Shown in pieces: positions 51,458 through 59,091 of a stretch of DNA of 64,000 nt; position 1 is the stretch's first letter; every line of letters begins with the position of its first letter. The DNA lies in sequence record ON528725; one strand, given 5' to 3'. Source of the DNA: Shigella phage ESh15. The notes beneath the pieces were generated by a model, which made no database searches, was not told the DNA's origin, and saw only the letters and a list, made by a program, of their open reading frames with translations. The translations under genes were made by a program, and so were the position numbers.

Positions 51458-53274
51458 TAGGACATCCATTCTTTACGAAGTTCTGAATCATCACCCATCA
51501 ACATTTCAAAGAGTTCTTTCCAATTTTCAGGAAGTTTAACTACGTCGTACACAGGGTTCTGAATCATTTCACGATATTCTGACTTTTCAAGGGAGCCTAA
51601 TCCCTTGATGTATCGAATACTATGCTTAGGCAGCGTATCTTTAGCTTCTTCGTACTCAGCTACAGTATAAAACCATTTTTGAGTTTTGCCGATTTGTGCA
51701 ATAATTACAGGTGTTTTAACAAAGCGAATACGTCCTTGTTCAAACAATTCAGGCCAATTACTAAAGAAAGCAAGCAAAGCCGGATAGATACTTCCAAGAC
51801 CGTCATGATCGGCATCGGTCATAATTGCAATATTACGATAGTTCGTATTCTCTGCTTTTTCACCAAGAATAAGACCTGTGATAGCACAGATATCAAAGAG
51901 CTCTTTGTTCTTCATCATATCAGCATATGACATACCCCAGCTATTCATCACCTTACCACGTAATGGGAATCCGCCATGTAGTTCACGGTCACGAACATCA
52001 ATGAGATATCCAATTGCCGAATCACCTTCTGTTAAGAACAATGTCGTATCTGCGTCTTTACCGCATTGGTTAGCTTTAATATGCTTATGAACCTTAGCTT
52101 TAGTGGCCTTTTTAGCTGCTTTAGTTTCTGCAGCCTTTTCTGCTGCCAATTTACGAGCTAATGCTGCTTCAACAATAGGCATAATCAAGGCTTCGTTTTT
52201 AAGAAGTGCCTGAGCAATTTTCTTAGCATCTAATTGGATATGATTACGAATATCACCATATGTTGACGTTAAACGTTCTTTAGTCTGAGAATCAAAACGC
52301 ATGTTACTCATGTCTCTAATAAACATCAACATTGTGAGGCATTCTTTAACACGAGCTTTAGTGACTTCAATACCCTTATATTTCTTTTTAATACCTGGCA
52401 AAAGATGTTCGCAGATATCGTCCATTACACATTCAACATGATGTCCACCATTTTTAGTATGGATGTTATTCACATAAGTTAAATGACGGAAGCCATCTGG
52501 TGATGTTGTGAATGCTATAGAGACTTTATCATTTTCTTGAATGATGTTATCTTCACCAAATTGTTTAGCAAATCGTTTAAAATTACCATCAACCTTTTTA
52601 CCATTAAATGTGAACTTGATATCAGGATAAACGACTGCCAATGTTTGAAGTCGGTCTAAAGTAATATCTAAATAAATTTGAGATAAATTATGCTCTTCAA
52701 ATGAAGAGAAATCAGGAGTGAAGATTACTTTAGTGCCTTTACCTTTAGATTTCTTAGAAGACCATGATTTGTTTTCCATTCCGTTTGAACAGTTAACAGT
52801 GATTTCATTTTCGCCATCTGACGTGATGCCTGTAAACAACGTAGAGAAGATATTAGTTAAACTACTCCCGACGCCGTTCATACCACCAGTCTTGCGTTCA
52901 GAGTCATCACCAAAGTTACCACCGGCCTTTGGAATAGTCCAGGCTGCTACAGGCCCAGGAATTTGTTCACCTGTTTGGTCGGTAACTAAACCTTGAGGAA
53001 TACCACGTCCGTTATCTTCCACAGAAACTTGATTATTTTTAATTTGCACATCAATTTTATTTGCAAACTTAAATGATGTACGAATAGCTTCATCAACCGA
53101 GTTGTCAATAATCTCATCGATTAATTTAACCAGACCAGGAACATATTCAACTTGTTGATATTTACCAAACAAAAAACGCTCATGTGCTTCTTTGGCCGAA
53201 GAACCAATATACATACCACTACGTTTCTTAATATGTTCTACATCCGACAATACCTTAATTTCATTTTTAATCAT
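51457..53274 (-). CDS. 39: DNA topoisomerase II large subunit gp39, unsplit (includes the gene-60-equivalent C-terminal part)
   Basis: 605 aa (T4 gp39 plus gp60 about 516+160 aa); GyrB ATPase and TOPRIM motifs; no bypass element or split. Confidence 0.92.
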   Translation of the reverse strand: MIKNEIKVLSDVEHIKKRSGMYIGSSAKEAHERFLFGKYQQVEYVPGLVKLIDEIIDNSVDEAIRTSFKFANKIDVQIKNNQVSVEDNGRGIPQGLVTDQTGEQIPGPVAAWTIPKAGGNFGDDSERKTGGMNGVGSSLTNIFSTLFTGITSDGENEITVNCSNGMENKSWSSKKSKGKGTKVIFTPDFSSFEEHNLSQIYLDITLDRLQTLAVVYPDIKFTFNGKKVDGNFKRFAKQFGEDNIIQENDKVSIAFTTSPDGFRHLTYVNNIHTKNGGHHVECVMDDICEHLLPGIKKKYKGIEVTKARVKECLTMLMFIRDMSNMRFDSQTKERLTSTYGDIRNHIQLDAKKIAQALLKNEALIMPIVEAALARKLAAEKAAETKAAKKATKAKVHKHIKANQCGKDADTTLFLTEGDSAIGYLIDVRDRELHGGFPLRGKVMNSWGMSYADMMKNKELFDICAITGLILGEKAENTNYRNIAIMTDADHDGLGSIYPALLAFFSNWPELFEQGRIRFVKTPVIIAQIGKTQKWFYTVAEYEEAKDTLPKHSIRYIKGLGSLEKSEYREMIQNPVYDVVKLPENWKELFEMLMGDDSELRKEWMS

Positions 53275-53325
53275 GTTGTCTCCTCGTTATGAAGGTATTC
53301 TATCATCCGAAATCTAAAGCAAAAA

Positions 53326-53337
53326 GGGCCGGAGCCC
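53326..53337 (-). terminator. Hairpin terminator after ORF 53338-53784
   Basis: GGGC-CGGA-GCCC followed by UUUUUG in the minus-strand transcript. Confidence 0.5.
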
Positions 53338-53784
53338 TTATTTAAATTTAATTTTCTGAAGTGTATCAATTGCAGCTAAACGCCCTTGTTCACTTTTAAC
53401 CGTAATGACCACATCACCTGATACGATCACCGAACCATCAACAAATTCTATAGAGCCTTTTTTGAAATCGACAGCTGTATCTGGTTCCGGAACTTCTTCA
53501 AAGAATTTAAATTCTGCACCATAAATCAGAATATCACCTTGCATACTATGAATAGTTCGGCCATAATCGCCTACGGCTTCTACAGCAATCACTGAAACAC
53601 CATAACCAATCATCTCTTCCACAATAAAATCTTTAGACAATAAAGTAGTATGCAGATTAGTATTAAGACGTTTACCAGTCGTATTAAGAATTCTCAAGAA
53701 ATTATCTTCCTGTCCTTTGATAATACGATATTTCTTACCAACTTCAAAACCTTTAAAACCTTTAAAAGACGTATTAAAAGCCAT
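53338..53784 (-). CDS. Hypothetical protein, 148 aa
   Basis: Minus-strand ORF followed by a hairpin terminator. Confidence 0.45.
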   Translation of the reverse strand: MAFNTSFKGFKGFEVGKKYRIIKGQEDNFLRILNTTGKRLNTNLHTTLLSKDFIVEEMIGYGVSVIAVEAVGDYGRTIHSMQGDILIYGAEFKFFEEVPEPDTAVDFKKGSIEFVDGSVIVSGDVVITVKSEQGRLAAIDTLQKIKFK

Positions 53785-53786
53785 AA

Positions 53787-53966
53787 TTAACCCTTCTTAA
53801 GTAAGTCGTAAAAACCACCGTTCACATGTTTAGGAGCAGAAACCCGACGAGTAGACAGACGATGACATTCAGGGCAAACATCGTTTTCTCGTTCAGAAAT
53901 CCTTTTAATTTTTTCATATTCATGACCACAATCTTCAGATTGACATTTATAGTCGTATAACGGCAT
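53787..53966 (-). CDS. Zinc-ribbon protein (FmdB-like CxxC...CxxC), 59 aa, not in the ORF track
   Basis: Hand-translated MPLYDYKCQSEDCGHEYEKIKRISERENDVCPECHRLSTRRVSAPKHVNGGFYDLLKKG; tightly packed between flanking ORFs. Confidence 0.5.
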   Translation of the reverse strand: MPLYDYKCQSEDCGHEYEKIKRISERENDVCPECHRLSTRRVSAPKHVNGGFYDLLKKG

Positions 53967-53968
53967 TA

Positions 53969-54397
53969 TTATTCCTTAAAATGTGCTTTCAACATTTGAT
54001 ACAAAGACCATGCCTGGTCGTTATTTTCGATAGTAATCGTCATCACAGGAAATTCAGACAATTCGTCAAGTTCACTAGAATCTTGCTCTTCAGACGCTTG
54101 ATATGGATTTCCAACTTCGTCAAAGAACTCTGCTTCATTCGTGGAGAGCCAGATAAAGTTTTCATCAAGAATATCACCGCCTGTTGCGTATCCAACCATA
54201 CCAGTAGATGTCACAATTTTAGTAGGTCGTCCAAGATGGTCAACATCTAATACTTTAAATGGTTCCATGCCAAGACGTCGTGCATAAATCCCATTATCAG
54301 TGTGGTTTTTAATAAACTCTTCTTGGGCACGTTTATCTTTAAATTGGTACCATGAGTTAACGCGGAATTTATTAGCCATTAGTAAGTTTCCTTCCAA
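53969..54397 (-). CDS. Hypothetical acidic protein, 142 aa (goF-position)
   Basis: Size and position similar to T4 GoF (141 aa); identity not verifiable. Confidence 0.4.
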
Positions 54398-54606
54398 TAA
54401 GTTGTACCATTTTCAGTGATTTCACGGAAGATACCATAGATAGGCATTTCATCACCGAGTTTTTCGTAAACGTAAACCACTTCAGTGTAGCATAAAAATT
54501 CAGTCCAGTTTTTCTGTACAACAACTAAATCAGGATTAAACAGAACATCTTCAAACTCATCGATGTTTGAATCAGTAGTTACGTTTTTAATGATTTGACG
54601 TTTCAT
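54379..54606 (-). CDS. Hypothetical small protein (start at internal ATG, MKRQII)
   Basis: Track ORF start would lie inside the promoter cassette; internal ATG has a GGAGAA RBS. Confidence 0.4.
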
Positions 54607-54663
54607 AATATTCTCCTCTTGTTTTGATAGGTCTATAGTATCATAGACCATAGTTGTTGTACA

Positions 54664-55188
54664 TCATTTTAGCAAAATAAAATCAACTTGTTCTGCCAAT
54701 GAACGTCTGAACATTAATTGACAACTTCCGAGGATGAAATCAGGTGCTTCATAGACCGCGATGTAGTATCCTTTAGCTTTCAAGAGTTCAACATCCACCT
54801 GGTCATCAAACCATGCATAAACCGCGTCAACACTTTCAAATCCAAAATAGAACCCTTGAGCCCAATCTTCACTCAATTCAAATGTGTGCTCAATTCTATA
54901 GTATCTTAAGATATTTTGTTCAAGGAGTTTATCTTCATTTACTGTAGGACGATTAGGGACATTATAGTTGTCGCCGTGATGGTAGAAATTACCTGAGAGT
55001 ATTCCATGTTTATCAAGGAACTCCCATGTTTCTTCAGAGTTGTCGGTGCCTGACCAACCGTAAGGTGAGCGAGGTTCTTTATTCCAAGAGGTTTCCCAAA
55101 TTCTGACGGCTTTACCGTCTTCGATGGCAATTCCTGGTAATGATTCACGTTGAGTACAAAAACTACGTTCTACGCGGTAAACTAACAT
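54664..55188 (-). CDS. Hypothetical protein, 174 aa
   Basis: Minus-strand ORF with early promoter cassette upstream. Confidence 0.45.
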   Translation of the reverse strand: MLVYRVERSFCTQRESLPGIAIEDGKAVRIWETSWNKEPRSPYGWSGTDNSEETWEFLDKHGILSGNFYHHGDNYNVPNRPTVNEDKLLEQNILRYYRIEHTFELSEDWAQGFYFGFESVDAVYAWFDDQVDVELLKAKGYYIAVYEAPDFILGSCQLMFRRSLAEQVDFILLK

Positions 55189-55204
55189 ATTATTCTCCTC
55201 TAGT

Positions 55205-55243
55205 CGATAGATTTATAGTATCAAAACTAGAGGAGAAGTAAAC
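55205..55243 (-). promoter_or_regulatory. Early promoter cassette
   Basis: GTTTAC -35 on minus strand; upstream of ORF 54664-55188. Confidence 0.5.
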
Positions 55244-55247
55244 AACT

Positions 55248-55667
55248 TTATGCAAAAGATGCTGGACAATATTTTTTGATTTGGAACTCAGGAACTACCA
55301 TGAACTGTCCAGCGAAAACGATGTTATAAAGCTTAACACCATCTTCTACCCATTGGTCGCTAATAAATCCGGCGATTTGCTTAGTTTTCCATGGCGTTCC
55401 ATCAGTTGCAGAAGCAATAGTAAATTCATGGTCTTTTACAACTAAAACAGACCTGCATAGTCCCCATTTGAACGCTTTTTCTTCTGGTTCAATGAATTGG
55501 CTTGAGACGTAGCCAATGTTGCCATCAGCATCACGAACTTTAACTTGATGCGGACTAAAGAGTCCACAACTTACAGAAAGAACTTCAACCAACTTCCCAG
55601 CAACTTTAGAGCGAGAAGCAACAGGTACATATACGTAATCACCTGTAGAGAGATTTGCAATATTCAT
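55248..55667 (-). CDS. Paralogue family member 1 (C-terminal GFISDQWVEDGxKLYNIVF motif)
   Basis: 139 aa; shares N- and C-terminal blocks with 55677-56162 and the C-terminal block with 56225-56716. Confidence 0.5.
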   Translation of the reverse strand: MNIANLSTGDYVYVPVASRSKVAGKLVEVLSVSCGLFSPHQVKVRDADGNIGYVSSQFIEPEEKAFKWGLCRSVLVVKDHEFTIASATDGTPWKTKQIAGFISDQWVEDGVKLYNIVFAGQFMVVPEFQIKKYCPASFA

Positions 55668-55676
55668 AATAATTCC

Positions 55677-56162
55677 TTAAGCTTTACGAGGAGACACATA
55701 GCGAGTGATTTCAGATTCTTCAACAACTCGGAAGTCACCTAAGAATACAATATTGTATAGCTTTTTACCATCTTCAACCCATTGGTCGCTGATGAAGCCG
55801 CACATAGTATCAGTTTTGCTTGGATAACCATATTCGTCGATGAAATCAAATTCTTTATCAGTCTGGAATTCAACGCCTTTGCAAAGGGCCCATTTGAACT
55901 GTGCATTATGCTCTGTAGATTCAACTTTTTCTCTTGAAGCAAAAGCACTACTCACAGGCGTTTCCAAGAACTTTGCACGAACATAAGCAAATTGGGTTTC
56001 CTGTGTCCCAAAACTAGGAATAATACGAACTTTTACCTCAGAATCTTCATCTTTAACGCCTTCTTTAAGTTGAATACTTACAACTTCGACCAATTTTCCT
56101 GCGGCTTTAGAACGAGATTTGTTAGATACGCGAACGATTTCACCAATAATACCAAGATTCAT
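55677..56162 (-). CDS. Paralogue family member 2 (start at internal ATG, MNLGII)
   Basis: 161 aa from ATG with GAGAGAAA RBS; SRSKAAGKLVEV and GFISDQWVEDGKKLYNIVFLGDF blocks shared with member 1. Confidence 0.5.
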   Translation of the reverse strand: MNLGIIGEIVRVSNKSRSKAAGKLVEVVSIQLKEGVKDEDSEVKVRIIPSFGTQETQFAYVRAKFLETPVSSAFASREKVESTEHNAQFKWALCKGVEFQTDKEFDFIDEYGYPSKTDTMCGFISDQWVEDGKKLYNIVFLGDFRVVEESEITRYVSPRKA

Positions 56163-56224
56163 AATTTCTCTCTCTTTGTTTAAATTGAATTCACTATACT
56201 CCATCCATCCTTGGATGTACAACA

Positions 56225-56716
56225 TTAATTTAGAATATTAACCACAGCACTACGTGGAACTACACTAAAATCACCGGCATGAACAACGTTCAGAAGTTCA
56301 ACCCCATCTTCAATCCACTGGTCAGTTACCCAGCCACTTACTGGACCAGCGAATGGGCGTCGAATTGAAACAGCTTTACACAACAAATCAGTAGGCTCAA
56401 TAGGCTTAATCAGAGTACCATACATACAAGCGATATCCATATCAAAGATGTCTTTAACTGGTTCTACTTCTTCAATCAACAGTTCAAAGTCGGTGCTTGG
56501 AAGGGCGGTAGTAGAAATTGTACCGTATGAATTTTTAATTTCTAAGAATAACCAAGGGCCTTCAGCTTGTTTGATGAAGTTAACAATAGTGAAACTATTA
56601 CCTTGAGTGGCACCTAAAATTTCACAAAACTTTTCGTAAGCTCGCACTGAAGCACCGTACCAGTTGATTTGTTTTTCGTCTTTCAGGATGTAAGTAGCCA
56701 TAGCAGTGATATTCAT
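56225..56716 (-). CDS. Paralogue family member 3 (dexA.1/motB-region)
   Basis: 163 aa; C-terminal GWVTDQWIEDGVELLNVVHAGDFSVVP block shared with members 1 and 2. Confidence 0.5.
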   Translation of the reverse strand: MNITAMATYILKDEKQINWYGASVRAYEKFCEILGATQGNSFTIVNFIKQAEGPWLFLEIKNSYGTISTTALPSTDFELLIEEVEPVKDIFDMDIACMYGTLIKPIEPTDLLCKAVSIRRPFAGPVSGWVTDQWIEDGVELLNVVHAGDFSVVPRSAVVNILN

Positions 56717-56739
56717 AATGTTTTTCCTGTTTGGTTAAG

Positions 56740-56777
56740 ATAGATTCATTATACTCCAACCATCCTTGGTTGTAAAC
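56740..56777 (-). promoter_or_regulatory. Early promoter cassette
   Basis: Plus strand CATTATACTCCAACCATCCTTGGTTGTAAAC; upstream of ORF 56225-56716. Confidence 0.5.
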
Positions 56778-56782
56778 TGTTT

Positions 56783-57460
56783 TTATCGCTGTTTTACACT
56801 TAACGGGTCAGGATTCTCAGGGACATCTTCAAGGCCAAGCGCATAACGCTGAGCATATTTTAACATCAAAATATCTTTAGCACAATCGTGAATACTATCA
56901 TGGGCAACGAATCCTTTTAGCGCACCCATCGGTAATGGACACATACTTAATCCTCGTGTCAACGAGTAAGCTTCGATTGCCGTACGAATATCGCGTTGAG
57001 CCCAGAATTTAACAGGTTCTAATTTATCAGTATCAATATCTGGTTCAAGAACACCTTCATCACGATAGAGGTCACGAATCAAATCGACCAATATCGGGAA
57101 GTCAAAGCTCATACCACGGCACCACATCTGTGATTTCCATTGGTCAACTTTATTAGCTCGACAATAATCTAAAAAGATTTTAATGCCTTCAAGCGTAGTG
57201 ACATCGTCTTCAGACGGAGCCAGGTTTTTACGTGCTTCTGCTGATTGTTCTTTCCACCATTTCATAGTGGATTTAGCGAAAACTCGCTTCCCTTTCTGAG
57301 AAGCTAAATTAAATTTAATTCGCTTACCTCGTTGAACAAGTTCTTCGAATGTTTCAACAACTTCAGGGTCGGAATTATATGCAATAACCGCCAGGTCAAT
57401 AACAGCCGCTTTTGATGTATTGCCGAATGTTTCAAAATCTATAATAACATCAGTGCTCAT
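56783..57460 (-). CDS. dexA: Exonuclease A (DEDD-type 3'-5' exonuclease)
   Basis: 225 aa (T4 DexA 227 aa); N-terminal DFETFG motif; adjacent to dda. Confidence 0.85.
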   Translation of the reverse strand: MSTDVIIDFETFGNTSKAAVIDLAVIAYNSDPEVVETFEELVQRGKRIKFNLASQKGKRVFAKSTMKWWKEQSAEARKNLAPSEDDVTTLEGIKIFLDYCRANKVDQWKSQMWCRGMSFDFPILVDLIRDLYRDEGVLEPDIDTDKLEPVKFWAQRDIRTAIEAYSLTRGLSMCPLPMGALKGFVAHDSIHDCAKDILMLKYAQRYALGLEDVPENPDPLSVKQR

Positions 57461-57469
57461 AATTTTCTC

Positions 57470-58783
57470 TCAAATAAAATGGACGTCAAAACGACCACGA
57501 GTCGTGCCGACATACAATAACTGTTTAGCTAATTCTGAATCGGCATAATGGATACACGGTGTATAAACAAAGGCCGTGTCAACAGACATACCCTGGGCCT
57601 TATGGAAGGTTGATACTGGTAGTGCCTTTACCTTAGTGAACATACGTTTAGCATCCCAGAATTCACTCCATGGAGCTTTACCACCTTTATTCCAGAATTT
57701 GTATGTTTCTGCTGTCTTAGCCAAAAACAAATTGAATTTATAAAGCTCTTCTTCAGAAGAAATAACCTTTATATCCTCGCGGACGTATTCTTCATCATCA
57801 CCGTATGTTTCTACTGTAAGATTCCAGTATCGTATCATATATTCGCCTGAAACACCACGTGCTTTAACGAATGTAGACGTTTCTACAGCGTCTCGAATAC
57901 GAACGAATTGCCCGTTATTGAAAAGCATTTCGGTCATATTTTTGCCATCTAGCTTATATGTCTTAGTAAATGGCTCTTGTAGAACAATGACTTCGTCTTT
58001 AATAAATGGTTTTTCTGTTTCAAGAAGTTTTCGGCGAATAATTGAATTTAACTTGTCCACCGACTTATTTGTGAATGCCATCATTCGATTTTCGAAAAGG
58101 TCTTCAGGAGTTTTAACGACATTAAAATAGTTCATCATATACGATTTAAGGTCTGTATATCTATGAACACCGTGCCCGTCAACTACTTTATCGTAAATCC
58201 ATTTGCCATTACGAATATCAGTCGCAACATCAATAATTGGTGCATTGCTACGTTTAACTTCTGTAAGGTTGCATTGCACGAAGTCTTTGTGAGTGAAGAA
58301 AGGACTTAGATACGCAGTTGATTCGCCTGGGTCTACCGGTCGAATCTGGCATCTGTCGCCGATTCCAATTACTGTACACCATTTAGGGATACTAGCTAAC
58401 ATTATTTTAAACAGAGAACGGTCACACATTGACGCTTCATCAAATAACAGTACACGGCACAAGGCTAAGTCTGGAACCTTTTTCTGTTCAAATAATACGT
58501 TTTCTTCGTATGTAGTTGGGTTGATTTTAAGAATGCTATGAATAGTCGATGCTTCTTGACCTGCAAGTTTGCTTAGAACCTTTTTAGCAGCGTGTGTTGG
58601 TGCTGCTAAAATAATACCTGATTCTCCAGAAGAAATAAGGGCTTCAACGATGAATCTAGTAAGGGTTGTTTTACCTGTACCTGCAGGTCCATTAATAGTT
58701 ACGTGATGTTTCTTTTCTTTAATAGCTTTCATAACAACGTTGAAGGCGTTTTTCTGGCCTTCAGTCAAGTCATCAAATGTCAT
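57470..58783 (-). CDS. dda: Dda DNA helicase (SF1B)
   Basis: 437 aa (T4 Dda 439 aa); Walker A GPAGTGKTT, Walker B LLFDEASM, C-terminal YVGTTRG. Confidence 0.92.
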   Translation of the reverse strand: MTFDDLTEGQKNAFNVVMKAIKEKKHHVTINGPAGTGKTTLTRFIVEALISSGESGIILAAPTHAAKKVLSKLAGQEASTIHSILKINPTTYEENVLFEQKKVPDLALCRVLLFDEASMCDRSLFKIMLASIPKWCTVIGIGDRCQIRPVDPGESTAYLSPFFTHKDFVQCNLTEVKRSNAPIIDVATDIRNGKWIYDKVVDGHGVHRYTDLKSYMMNYFNVVKTPEDLFENRMMAFTNKSVDKLNSIIRRKLLETEKPFIKDEVIVLQEPFTKTYKLDGKNMTEMLFNNGQFVRIRDAVETSTFVKARGVSGEYMIRYWNLTVETYGDDEEYVREDIKVISSEEELYKFNLFLAKTAETYKFWNKGGKAPWSEFWDAKRMFTKVKALPVSTFHKAQGMSVDTAFVYTPCIHYADSELAKQLLYVGTTRGRFDVHFI

Positions 58784-59091
58784 CGTAAAGTCCCTGCAAT
58801 TGGAATACTAACAATACGGCCGGTATCTAGAATTCGTTGATACAATCTTTGCGTCTCTGCATCTAGTTTAACGTGTTTCATTTCAAGCTTATTAAACCAG
58901 AACTTACGCGGAGTTTCGACCATTCTTAGAACTCCCATTTTTAAATCTGTTTTATACTGTGTTTTCAAAGTATCGAAAACTTTATCTGCAATATCCTTTC
59001 TAAAAAATACTGCAGGACGATGTTCATCAAGTGGAACCGGGACAGTAAATCCTTCCATATCTCGATAAACTATTGCATATACATAAACCAT
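58780..59091 (-). CDS. Hypothetical protein (dda.1-position)
   Basis: 103 aa ORF overlapping the dda start by 4 nt. Confidence 0.45.
   Translation of the reverse strand: MVYVYAIVYRDMEGFTVPVPLDEHRPAVFFRKDIADKVFDTLKTQYKTDLKMGVLRMVETPRKFWFNKLEMKHVKLDAETQRLYQRILDTGRIVSIPIAGTLR

Follow-up and report, generated by a model that had tools for sequence, protein, structure and literature searches.

MotB of phage T4 binds DNA non-specifically, is toxic in E. coli, co-purifies with H-NS/StpA and alters the H-NS footprint (PMC6070864, PMC7827196). It also compacts DNA, according to the account of Son et al. 2021 (NAR 49:9229) given in PMC13096335. Its C-terminal domain was assigned by HHpred to the OB fold, SCOPe b.40.4.5 (PMC7827196). 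The N-terminal domain of MotB.1 was described as LSm-like, in a family with GoF and Frd.2 (PMC12152347). In T4, burst size is unaffected when motB.1 is deleted and changes only two-fold when motB is deleted (PMC12152347, PMC6070864). Patterson-West et al. 2021 (Viruses 13:84, PMC7827196) distinguished four categories and listed two motB genes, one motB.1 gene and a 29-aa peptide for RB69.

Here we analysed a 64,000-nt stretch of Shigella phage ESh15 (ON528725), referred to as the window. Judged by its sequence, the window is DNA of a Mosigvirus, one of the RB69-like T-even phages, and the Mosigvirus phages phiE142 and phiC120 match it at 97% DNA identity. The best explanation of the locus, with a probability of roughly 0.85, is that it contains the RB69-like early genes motB.1 (ORF3) and motB (ORF2) and an older motB paralogue (ORF1), which evolve by recombination under purifying selection. 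An earlier note on this DNA had pointed out the three genes as tandem paralogues. Neither the family and its common C-terminal domain nor the RB69-type triplet is new: they appear in Pfam, PHROGs, GenBank notes and the 2021 paper, and the paralogy, including the RB69 arrangement, is both published (PMC7827196) and noted in GenBank records. As a discovery the locus has little weight, and its value lies in practical points for work on T4 early genes. The present work makes two small additions: natural hybrids joined at the FKW and DQWVEDG motifs, and the recognition that frameshifts in reference records gave rise to the 119-aa T4 MotB.1 and the RB69 29-aa peptide.

Genes and promoters of the motB locus

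The following features are found on the minus strand:

55248-55667, minus strand: ORF1 (139 aa), second, shorter MotB paralogue, the RB69 ORF010c "MotB-like" protein
55677-56162, minus strand: ORF2 (161 aa from MNLGII), MotB orthologue
56225-56716, minus strand: ORF3 (163 aa), full-length MotB.1 orthologue
56402-56446, minus strand: linear motif FDMDIACMYGTLIKP (ORF3 residues 91-105), short and conserved, within the disordered linker and directly before the C-terminal domain
56748-56776, minus strand: early-type sigma-70 promoter upstream of ORF3, TTTACA-17-TATAAT, 11/12 consensus
56193-56221, minus strand: weaker promoter-like site upstream of ORF2, TGTACA-17-TATAGT, 9/12
55668-55679, minus strand: ORF2-ORF1 junction, with an AAGGA Shine-Dalgarno that lies 7 nt ahead of the ORF1 ATG and shares bases with the ORF2 stop TAA

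The gene order is dexA, motB.1 (ORF3), motB (ORF2), motB-like (ORF1), motB.2 and cef. A position between dexA and cef/goF in the early region of a Tevenvirinae genome, which we took as a mark of MotB proper, is common to the window, Shf125875, RB69, T4 and RB27. Annotations of the orthologues in the Shf125875 and RB69 records agree with the gene assignment, and the GenBank note on the ORF1 orthologue reads "similar to RB69ORF010c; similar to motB". Gene order and annotations thus identify the T4 motB region as the counterpart of this locus, as the earlier note had proposed. Its further comparison with dexA.1 and dexA.2 fails, since BLASTP found nothing better than E 0.77 and T4 carries both genes on the opposite side of dexA, in the interval from dda to dexA. 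The motB.1 slot itself is variable, being empty in RPN187 and occupied by a 181-aa class in pSe_SNUABM_01. An Rfam scan of positions 53000-59000 gave no match.

An early promoter had been claimed for each gene. The claim holds well for ORF3, and phage NBG1 has an annotated promoter in the corresponding position. It holds less well for ORF2, whose weaker site runs into the end of ORF3; across the region 10 promoter-like sites were counted, against a shuffle expectation of 9.4. A 48-nt direct repeat (56172-56219 and 56727-56774, 81% identical) covers the ORF2 site and the ORF3 promoter and leader. For ORF1 the claim does not hold: neither the 9 bp that separate it from ORF2 nor the minus strand within ORF2 contains a promoter-like site. 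With so short a spacer and no promoter in it, ORF1 is probably co-transcribed with ORF2. A 182-aa reading of ORF2 from the ATG at 56225 was rejected: its extra N-terminal part runs over the promoter-like site of ORF2 itself, and the alignment with T4 MotB begins at the internal Met.

A shared C-terminal domain with different N-terminal domains

Smith-Waterman scores were 226 for ORF1/ORF2, 107 for ORF1/ORF3 and 97 for ORF2/ORF3, while shuffled sequences scored 28 +/- 5 and reached the observed scores in 0 of 2000 shuffles. All three proteins exceed the gathering threshold of the Pfam family PF17613 (motB), which is 25 bits, with 76 bits for ORF1, 182 bits for ORF2 and 34 bits for ORF3; the ORF3 match is limited to residues 93-158. 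These results bear out the observation in the earlier note of three tandem paralogues with a common C-terminal DQW(V/I)EDG module. The motifs it quoted are also present, GFISDQWVEDGxKLYNIVFxGxFxVV in ORF1 and ORF2 and GWVTDQWIEDGVELLNVVHAGDFSVVP in ORF3, and the SRSKxAGKLVEV and FKWxLC blocks occur in ORF1 and ORF2 only. Family alignments carry the C-terminal consensus FKW/PTDLL...G(F/W)(I/V)(S/T)DQW(V/I)EDG...L(Y/L)N(I/V)V...VV, in which D, W, E, G, L, N, V and V are invariant. The KOW-like N-terminal motif SRSKAAGK(L/R)VEV of MotB proper (phrog_1671) is found in ORF1 and ORF2 and is absent from ORF3, and the N-terminal part of ORF3 scores 21 against ORF1/ORF2, equal to the shuffle mean and showing no similarity.

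A profile of the C-terminal domain detected exactly three copies in the 64-kb window, and a six-frame DQW scan, tblastn and HMM searches found neither a fourth copy nor a detached C-terminal peptide there. When a deep profile of this domain alone was run against 1.84 billion representatives, about 27 credible clusters were obtained, all of small phage proteins with the same architecture, and no credible cellular relative was found. Multi-stretch matches at E ~1e-4 in this search were tail-fibre-like repeats (SGYATEQWV), which we judged spurious. A PDB sequence search with ORF2 gave no match.

ORF1 contains a KOW-like N-terminal barrel (residues 1-62) and the MotB C-terminal domain (63-139), and lacks the ~22-aa linker present in MotB. 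It matches phrog_1671 at E 1.5e-49. ORF2 consists of a basic KOW-like N-terminal domain (1-66), a variable linker (67-87) and the C-terminal domain (88-161). By BLASTP, ORF1 shares only 42% identity with ORF2 and 36% with T4 MotB, but ORF2 and T4 MotB share 58% over 152 aa, so the duplication predates the T4/RB69 split. A recent triplication therefore finds no place, since the ORF1/ORF2 duplication is ancient.

In ORF3, an unrelated N-terminal domain (1-85) and a disordered insert (86-106) precede a MotB-type C-terminal domain (107-163), which lacks one hairpin, seen as a ~16-aa gap in the alignment with MotB. ORF3 matches phrog_2333 at E 5e-79 over residues 1-163 and T4 MotB.1 at 39% identity over 127 aa (E 6e-27), and its MotB.1-type homologues are 143-169 aa long. 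Further MotB.1-type proteins carry the FDMDIACMYGTLIKP motif, between domains or N-terminally, and MotB-type proteins never do.

The reference records of T4 and RB69 contain frameshift errors in motB.1. In T4, the 119-aa reference MotB.1 (13.8 kDa) is due to a 1-nt insertion that cuts inside DQWIEDG and is present only in AF158101 and NC_000866; this was checked by megablast against phage records, as IMG/VR pattern scans were too sparse (0 versus 4 matches). Resequenced T4 encodes a 143-aa MotB.1 with the full C-terminal domain. Because of the frameshift, MotB.1 constructs derived from NC_000866 lack half of this domain, which is complete in the real protein. The RB69 reference motB.1 is broken by two frameshifts, which left its tail detached as the RB69 "29-aa category 3 peptide"; motB.1 of the window is intact.

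Purifying selection and recombination

The earlier note suggested a triplicated family under diversifying selection, with host-factor binders and anti-defence proteins as examples; as a rival explanation, this would mean a recent triplication and an arms race. Several observations agree with it. Within Mosigvirus, MotB (71-98% protein identity) and MotB-like (86-96%) are far more divergent than the products of the flanking genes dda, dexA, motB.2 and cef (97-100%). The motB.1 slot varies, as described above. N-terminal domains are swapped, with at least four distinct N-termini on a nearly invariant C-terminal domain in the alignments. The dN/dS of the MotB linker reaches ~0.5-1.1. However, across nine Mosigvirus loci the gene-wide dN/dS was 0.14 for ORF3, 0.27 for ORF2 and 0.17 for ORF1, and in the C-terminal domains dN was 0.00-0.07 versus a dS of 0.15-0.45; these are pairwise Nei-Gojobori estimates over whole genes or domains of 7-9 sequences, in which a few positively selected sites would escape detection. 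The dS of the trio (0.30-0.45) is 3-6 times that of the neighbouring genes (0.07-0.13), so the excess divergence lies mostly in dS and points to older or imported alleles, not to fast protein evolution. Across genera, the MotB.1 class shows almost no variation in its C-terminal domain. PADLOC-DB models of defence and anti-defence gave no match at E up to 0.1, nor did an NCBIfam search of the trio. These results and the absent or two-fold burst-size effects of the T4 deletions speak against the rival explanation. We conclude that the three genes are under purifying selection in all domains, and diversifying selection is quite improbable.

The selection estimates also bear on ORF1, which could be a functionless, decaying remnant of a motB duplication. 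Compared with ORF2 it is shorter (139 versus 161 aa) and without a linker, no promoter belongs to it alone, and its N-terminal domain is non-basic. However, its dN/dS is 0.17, its AlphaFold2 model is confident (pLDDT 88, pTM 0.76), and its Shine-Dalgarno is good and coupled to the stop codon of ORF2. Versions of ORF1 at 80% identity or more occur in ~206 phage records from Mosigvirus and some Tequatrovirus phages, in which the frame is unbroken and always 139 aa long. We therefore regard decay of ORF1 as highly improbable.

Besides the raised dS, exchange of domains or alleles contributes to the extra divergence. Two short repeats lie within the conserved coding stretches:

55339-55358, with copies at 55768-55787 and 56304-56323, no strand assigned: 20-nt repeat encoding DQWVEDG (family D3, 90-95% identity), candidate crossover point
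55454-55473, with a copy at 55880-55899, no strand assigned: 20-nt repeat encoding FKWxLC (family D4, 85% identity), second candidate crossover point

Three natural hybrid genes from metagenome assemblies are joined at these motifs. P0151 switches from MotB-type to ORF1-type exactly at DQWVEDG, and P0147 and P0149 switch at FKW. In 5 independent contigs from several runs, the locus has P0149 as its only motB gene. The family evolves by homologous recombination between alleles and between tandem copies at the FKW- and DQWVEDG-coding stretches, and both mosaic genes and fused hybrid genes result from it. ORF2 itself joins a T4-type N-terminal allele to a Mosigvirus-type C-terminal allele: its N-terminal dN is 0.18 to T4 and 0.32-0.38, with dS >1, to RB69-type MotB, and its C-terminal dN is 0.02-0.04 to Mosigvirus alleles. 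When tandem T-even paralogues are reshuffled in this way at short conserved motifs of their coding sequence, the outcome looks like "rapid divergence" although no positive selection is at work.

Predicted fold, proposed function and known systems

In small beta-barrels, the absence of a helix between strands 3 and 4 indicates an SH3-like fold and not an OB fold. In the AlphaFold2 models of ORF1 and ORF3, each barrel has four strands, a one-turn helix and a fifth strand. The ORF3 model has two domains (pLDDT 81) and a linker, residues 86-105, with pLDDT below 50. The C-terminal module of the MotB family is thus predicted to be a five-stranded small beta-barrel, with the invariant D-x-W-x-E-x-G on strand 2 and the next turn. 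The N-terminal domains of ORF1 and ORF2 are KOW-like barrels, and that of ORF3 is an unrelated barrel followed by the disordered linker motif.

The published HHpred assignment (PMC7827196) would instead make the C-terminal module an OB-fold DNA binder of the cold-shock/eIF5A type, so that all three proteins coat DNA and the N-terminal domains are accessory. This domain is indeed the sole part common to all members and strongly conserved, and in T4 MotB it is slightly basic (net charge +1). However, the C-terminal domains of the window are neutral to acidic (+1 in ORF1, -4 in ORF2 and -3 in ORF3), and the modelled strand order, without a helix between strands 3 and 4, fits an SH3-like barrel better. 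We consider the OB-fold explanation possible but rather unlikely. If the domain is SH3/Tudor-like as modelled, different residues should be mutated.

By analogy with its T4 orthologue, ORF2 may be made early and in abundance, coat DNA irrespective of its sequence and shift H-NS placement on it, giving a better burst size. The N-terminal domain is basic in ORF2 (net charge +3) and T4 MotB (+5) and non-basic in ORF1. Together with the near-invariance of the C-terminal domain, these charges suggest that the basic KOW-like domain would give most of the nucleic-acid contact and that the shared C-terminal barrel may be a common docking or oligomerisation surface, which could then be combined with different N-terminal domains.

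A broader and doubtful proposal, to which we give little credence, is that the C-terminal domain is a Tudor/SH3-like docking barrel and not an OB DNA binder, through which the paralogues form mixed nucleoid oligomers. Its invariant acidic-aromatic face (D-x-W-x-E) would bind a basic partner or mediate contacts between C-terminal domains, and the N-terminal "readers" would be a basic KOW domain (DNA), a neutral KOW domain, and an acidic LSm-like domain with the linear motif (RNA or host protein). If this were true, the published negative results with T4 MotB.1 may come from a 119-aa protein cut in the middle of the barrel.

Among known systems, T4 MotB resembles ORF2 in its equal length, the KOW-like N-terminal motif SRSKAAGKLVEVVSIQLK, the FKW and DQWVEDG blocks, and a locus downstream of dexA and upstream of cef. 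It differs in its pI (9.2 versus 5.4) and in that the linker and C-terminal domain of ORF2 are Mosigvirus-type; as ORF2 is acidic overall, its DNA affinity may differ. T4 MotB.1 shares with ORF3 an early promoter, the slot immediately upstream of motB and a C-terminal domain related to that of MotB, but lacks the extra ~20-aa insert (FDMDIACMYGTLIKP). ORF1 has the two-domain plan of T4 MotB and no T4 counterpart of its own, whereas RB27 and some other Tequatrovirus phages have one. The RB69 arrangement ORF010c / motB / motB.1 / RB69p012 has the three genes in the same order as the window, but the RB69 MotB N-terminal domain is unlike the T4-type N-terminal allele of the window. Tandem small beta-barrels that bind nucleic acid or chromatin, namely the Spt5/NusG KOW domains and the 53BP1 tandem Tudor domain, resemble the trio at the level of fold only, with 9-19% identity and no detectable sequence homology.

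The motB genes of the window

Between dexA and a motB.2-like gene, in a region (53.3-58.8 kb) where every gene lies on the minus strand, the window carries three related genes:

55248-55667, minus strand: ORF1, 139 aa, MotB-like
55677-56162, minus strand: ORF2, 161 aa counted from MNLGII, MotB orthologue
56225-56716, minus strand: ORF3, 163 aa, MotB.1 orthologue

The motifs quoted in the earlier note were found as described in these ORFs. Local alignment scores were 226 for ORF1 and ORF2, 107 for ORF1 and ORF3, and 97 for ORF2 and ORF3, compared with 28 ± 5 for shuffled sequences; the observed scores were not reached in any of 2000 shuffles. The similarity among the three ORFs far exceeds chance, and an HMM search found exactly three copies of the shared C-terminal domain in the 64-kb window, namely these ORFs. 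Motifs, alignment and HMM thus confirm that the observation was real and that the genes are paralogues. The N-terminal 105 residues of ORF3 showed no relation to ORF1 or ORF2 in the local alignments against shuffles.

At the DNA level the region shares 97% identity with two Mosigvirus (RB69-like T-even) phages, phiE142 and phiC120, and 96% with Shf125875. In the records of these related phages, the counterparts of ORF1, ORF2 and ORF3 are annotated as 'similar to RB69ORF010c; similar to motB', 'RB69 motB', and 'RB51 and RB69 motB.1', respectively. All three ORFs pass the 25-bit cut-off of Pfam PF17613 (motB), with 76, 182 and 34 bits, the match in ORF3 being confined to residues 93-158. In PHROGs, ORF1 and ORF2 fall into phrog_1671 ('MotB-like transcriptional regulator') and ORF3 into phrog_2333. 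By BLASTP, T4 MotB is 58% identical to ORF2 and 36% to ORF1, ORF1 and ORF2 share 42% identity, and ORF3 is 39% identical to T4 MotB.1 (E 6e-27); none of the three matched T4 DexA.1, DexA.2 or MotB.2. The earlier comparison with T4 had the right locus, but dexA.1 and dexA.2 were the wrong T4 ORFs to name.

From an alignment of 102 phage homologues, Patterson-West et al. 2021 (PMC7827196) distinguished four categories: MotB proteins, two classes with a common C-terminal domain and different N-terminal domains (one including T4 MotB.1), and a single 29-aa RB69 peptide. They proposed that one gene originated from the other by duplication, and credited RB69 with two copies of motB, a single motB.1 and the 29-aa peptide. 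The three window genes are members of this known MotB/MotB.1 family in the known RB69-type arrangement.

The gene order in T4 is dda, dexA.2, dexA.1, dexA, motB.2, motB.1, motB, cef, whereas that in the window is dda, dexA, motB.1, motB, motB-like, motB.2-like, cef, goF. The motB.2-like gene (54664-55188, phrog_1106, 34% identical to T4 MotB.2) has no similarity to the MotB family, its name notwithstanding. It lies downstream of the motB genes, whereas motB.2 is between dexA and motB.1 in T4 and RB27, and it has therefore been relocated within the cluster. The motB.1 slot also varies between phages: RPN187 lacks motB.1, so that dexA is directly followed by motB, and in pSe_SNUABM_01 and several metagenome contigs the slot is filled by a 181-aa protein that combines another N-terminal domain with the same C-terminal domain.

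By tblastn, ~780 of 50,697 phage records contain the family, and the hosts of these phages are all enterobacterial. The ORF1 type (at least 80% identity) is present in ~206 of these, including some Tequatrovirus phages such as RB27 and pSe_SNUABM_01, and the more distant T-even relatives infecting Enterobacter and Edwardsiella gave one match per record. When 1.84 billion cluster representatives were searched with the C-terminal-domain profile alone, only ~27 credible clusters were found, all of them small proteins in which the MotB-family C-terminal domain comes after a KOW-like or LSm-like N-terminus.

Promoters, selection and domain exchange

The expression signals around these genes are as follows:

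56776-56748, minus strand: early-type promoter of ORF3, near-consensus (11 of 12 consensus positions)
56221-56193, minus strand: promoter-like site of ORF2 (9 of 12 consensus positions)
56172-56219 and 56727-56774: 48-nt direct repeat, 81% identical

The proposal that each gene has its own early promoter holds for ORF3, is weaker for ORF2, and fails for ORF1, for which a consensus scan of the minus strand inside ORF2 found no promoter-like site. We note that the whole scan gave 10 sites versus 9.4 in shuffles, which is no excess, and therefore only the ORF3 promoter is convincing by itself. The 48-nt repeat spans the promoter spacer, -10 element and leader of ORF2 and ORF3, and its similarity seems greater than the general T4 early-promoter consensus alone would give. 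Because the ORF2 site sits within this repeat of the ORF3 promoter and leader, the sequence suggests that the promoter cassette was duplicated together with the gene. ORF1 is most likely co-transcribed with ORF2, as the gap between them is 9 bp, the Shine-Dalgarno sequence of ORF1 shares bases with the ORF2 stop codon, and ORF2 contains no promoter-like site on that strand.

Pairwise Nei-Gojobori values for nine Mosigvirus loci
ORF3: dN/dS 0.14, mean dS 0.12
ORF2: dN/dS 0.27, mean dS 0.45
ORF1: dN/dS 0.17, mean dS 0.30
dda, dexA, motB.2, cef and goF: dN/dS 0.02-0.09, mean dS 0.07-0.16

Across these loci the flanking genes have 97-100% protein identity, and identity drops to 71-79% for MotB in five of the eight other Mosigvirus genomes and to 86-89% for MotB-like in six of the eight. 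The dS of ORF2 and ORF1 exceeds that of the neighbouring genes several-fold. Diversifying selection, as suggested in the earlier note, is unsupported, given gene-wide dN/dS of 0.14-0.27, low C-terminal dN, and a dS that is itself raised. The N-terminal domain of the window MotB (55965-56162) shows dN of 0.32-0.38 and saturated dS (1.1-1.6) against RB69-type alleles and is nearer to T4 (dN 0.18), and its C-terminal domain is near-identical to Mosigvirus alleles (dN 0.02-0.04). With one domain of T4 type and the other of Mosigvirus type, the window motB is therefore an inter-genus mosaic; the same allele is found in phages Shf125875, ESh27 and phiC120. In the C-terminal domains of ORF1 and ORF3, dN is 0.00-0.07 and dS is 0.2-0.45. 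The MotB linker, which also contains indels, is the sole part approaching neutrality. In the MotB.1 class, an almost invariant C-terminal domain carries at least four unrelated N-terminal architectures. Based on the low dN/dS, the per-domain values and this invariant domain on varied N-termini, the pattern is one of purifying selection with exchange of alleles and domains.

Three natural proteins from metagenome contigs are hybrids, which is direct evidence that the paralogues recombine with one another. P0147 and P0149 consist of a MotB-type N-terminal domain and linker joined at the FKW block to an ORF1-type C-terminal domain, and in P0151 the change from MotB-type to ORF1-type sequence falls exactly on DQWVEDG. 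P0149 recurs on five contigs, the product of several sequencing runs, and one of these contigs is 19 kb long. All five have P0149 as their sole motB gene, with a 181-aa MotB.1-class gene on one side and cef on the other; P0147 has the same context. A single hybrid motB is consistent with collapse of a tandem pair via unequal crossing-over. The DNA encoding DQWVEDG is a 20-nt repeat in all three window genes (90-95% identical), and that encoding FKWxLC is a 20-nt repeat in ORF1 and ORF2 (85% identical).

Predicted structures and putative functions

AlphaFold2 models of ORF1 (pLDDT 88, pTM 0.76) and ORF3 (pLDDT 81, residues 86-105 disordered), built from family alignments, were rated confident. 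The ORF1 N-terminal domain and the C-terminal domains of both models contain four strands, a one-turn helix and a fifth strand, and because of this order we read the MotB-family proteins here as predicted to consist of SH3-like small barrels, the structure searches having used whole models. A PDB sequence search with ORF2 gave no hit. This reading agrees with the published KOW assignment of the MotB N-terminal domain but disagrees with the HHpred-based OB assignment of its C-terminal domain. Among viral models, the Foldseek matches were confined to the family itself and a few phage proteins labelled 'KOW domain'. Compared with MotB, a hairpin of ~16 residues is missing from the MotB.1-type C-terminal domain. 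Kim et al. 2025 (PMC12152347) describe the N-terminal domain of MotB.1 as LSm-like, a barrel with relatives in GoF and Frd.2, and report a normal burst size for T4 with motB.1 deleted.

The disordered linker of the ORF3 model contains the motif FDMDIACMYGTLIKP (residues 91-105, window 56402-56446). Similar motifs, with the pattern hydrophobic-D-x-D-hydrophobic-x-x-x-Y-x-x-P, occur in many MotB.1-type proteins, at the N-terminus or just ahead of the C-terminal domain, and in none of the MotB-type proteins. FDMDIACMYGTLIKP may be a short linear interaction motif.

T4 MotB is toxic in E. coli and doubles burst size. Its DNA binding shows no sequence specificity and extends to modified and unmodified DNA alike. 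H-NS and StpA co-purify with it only if DNA is present; MotB also alters how H-NS footprints at proV and relieves repression of part of the H-NS regulon (PMC6070864, PMC7827196). Nucleoid compaction by T4 MotB was also proposed (Son et al. 2021, as cited in PMC13096335). By analogy, ORF2 most likely acts like T4 MotB: it would be made early and in abundance, coat DNA and reshape nucleoid and H-NS complexes.

Net charges of domains and proteins
ORF2 N-terminal domain: +3
T4 MotB N-terminal domain: +5
ORF1 C-terminal domain: +1
ORF2 C-terminal domain: -4
ORF3 C-terminal domain: -3
ORF3 whole protein: -9

The KOW-like N-terminal domain would putatively make the main nucleic-acid contact, and the conserved C-terminal barrel may serve as a shared docking or oligomerisation surface; the published alternative, in which the C-terminal domain is an OB-type DNA binder, is possible. 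ORF2 is acidic overall (pI 5.4, net -3), its N-terminal domain being the only basic part, in contrast to the basic T4 MotB (pI 9.2, net +6). This acidity may limit the transfer of the DNA-coating behaviour of T4 MotB to ORF2.

Frameshifts in the reference motB.1 genes

The motB.1 genes of two reference genomes are broken:

NC_000866 2222-2330, minus strand: break in T4 motB.1 (compare window 56228-56330)
NC_004928 3377-3563, minus strand: break in RB69 motB.1, two 1-nt insertions

In NC_000866 and AF158101, T4 MotB.1 has 119 aa and ends in ...DQWIGRWR. One extra G inside the DQWIEDG motif truncates the gene, and the conserved tail EDGVELLNVVHAGEYSVVPRSAVVAILN is encoded in the next reading frame. 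The extra G is present only in these two records; 13 records of resequenced T4, T4T, RB55 and RB59 are 1 nt shorter, MT984581 has MotB.1 annotated at 143 aa, and the 143-aa protein (P0011) is recorded on 256 contigs. In RB69, the C-terminal tail of MotB.1 has become detached and is annotated as a separate 29-aa ORF, RB69p012, immediately downstream of motB.1; this is the 'category 3 peptide' of PMC7827196. Constructs based on NC_000866 would miss the last three strands of the MotB.1 C-terminal domain. The amber-mutant sequences in PMC12152347 were drawn from NC_000866.4, and the 13.8-kDa monomer given there for MotB.1 corresponds in size to the 119-aa reference product.
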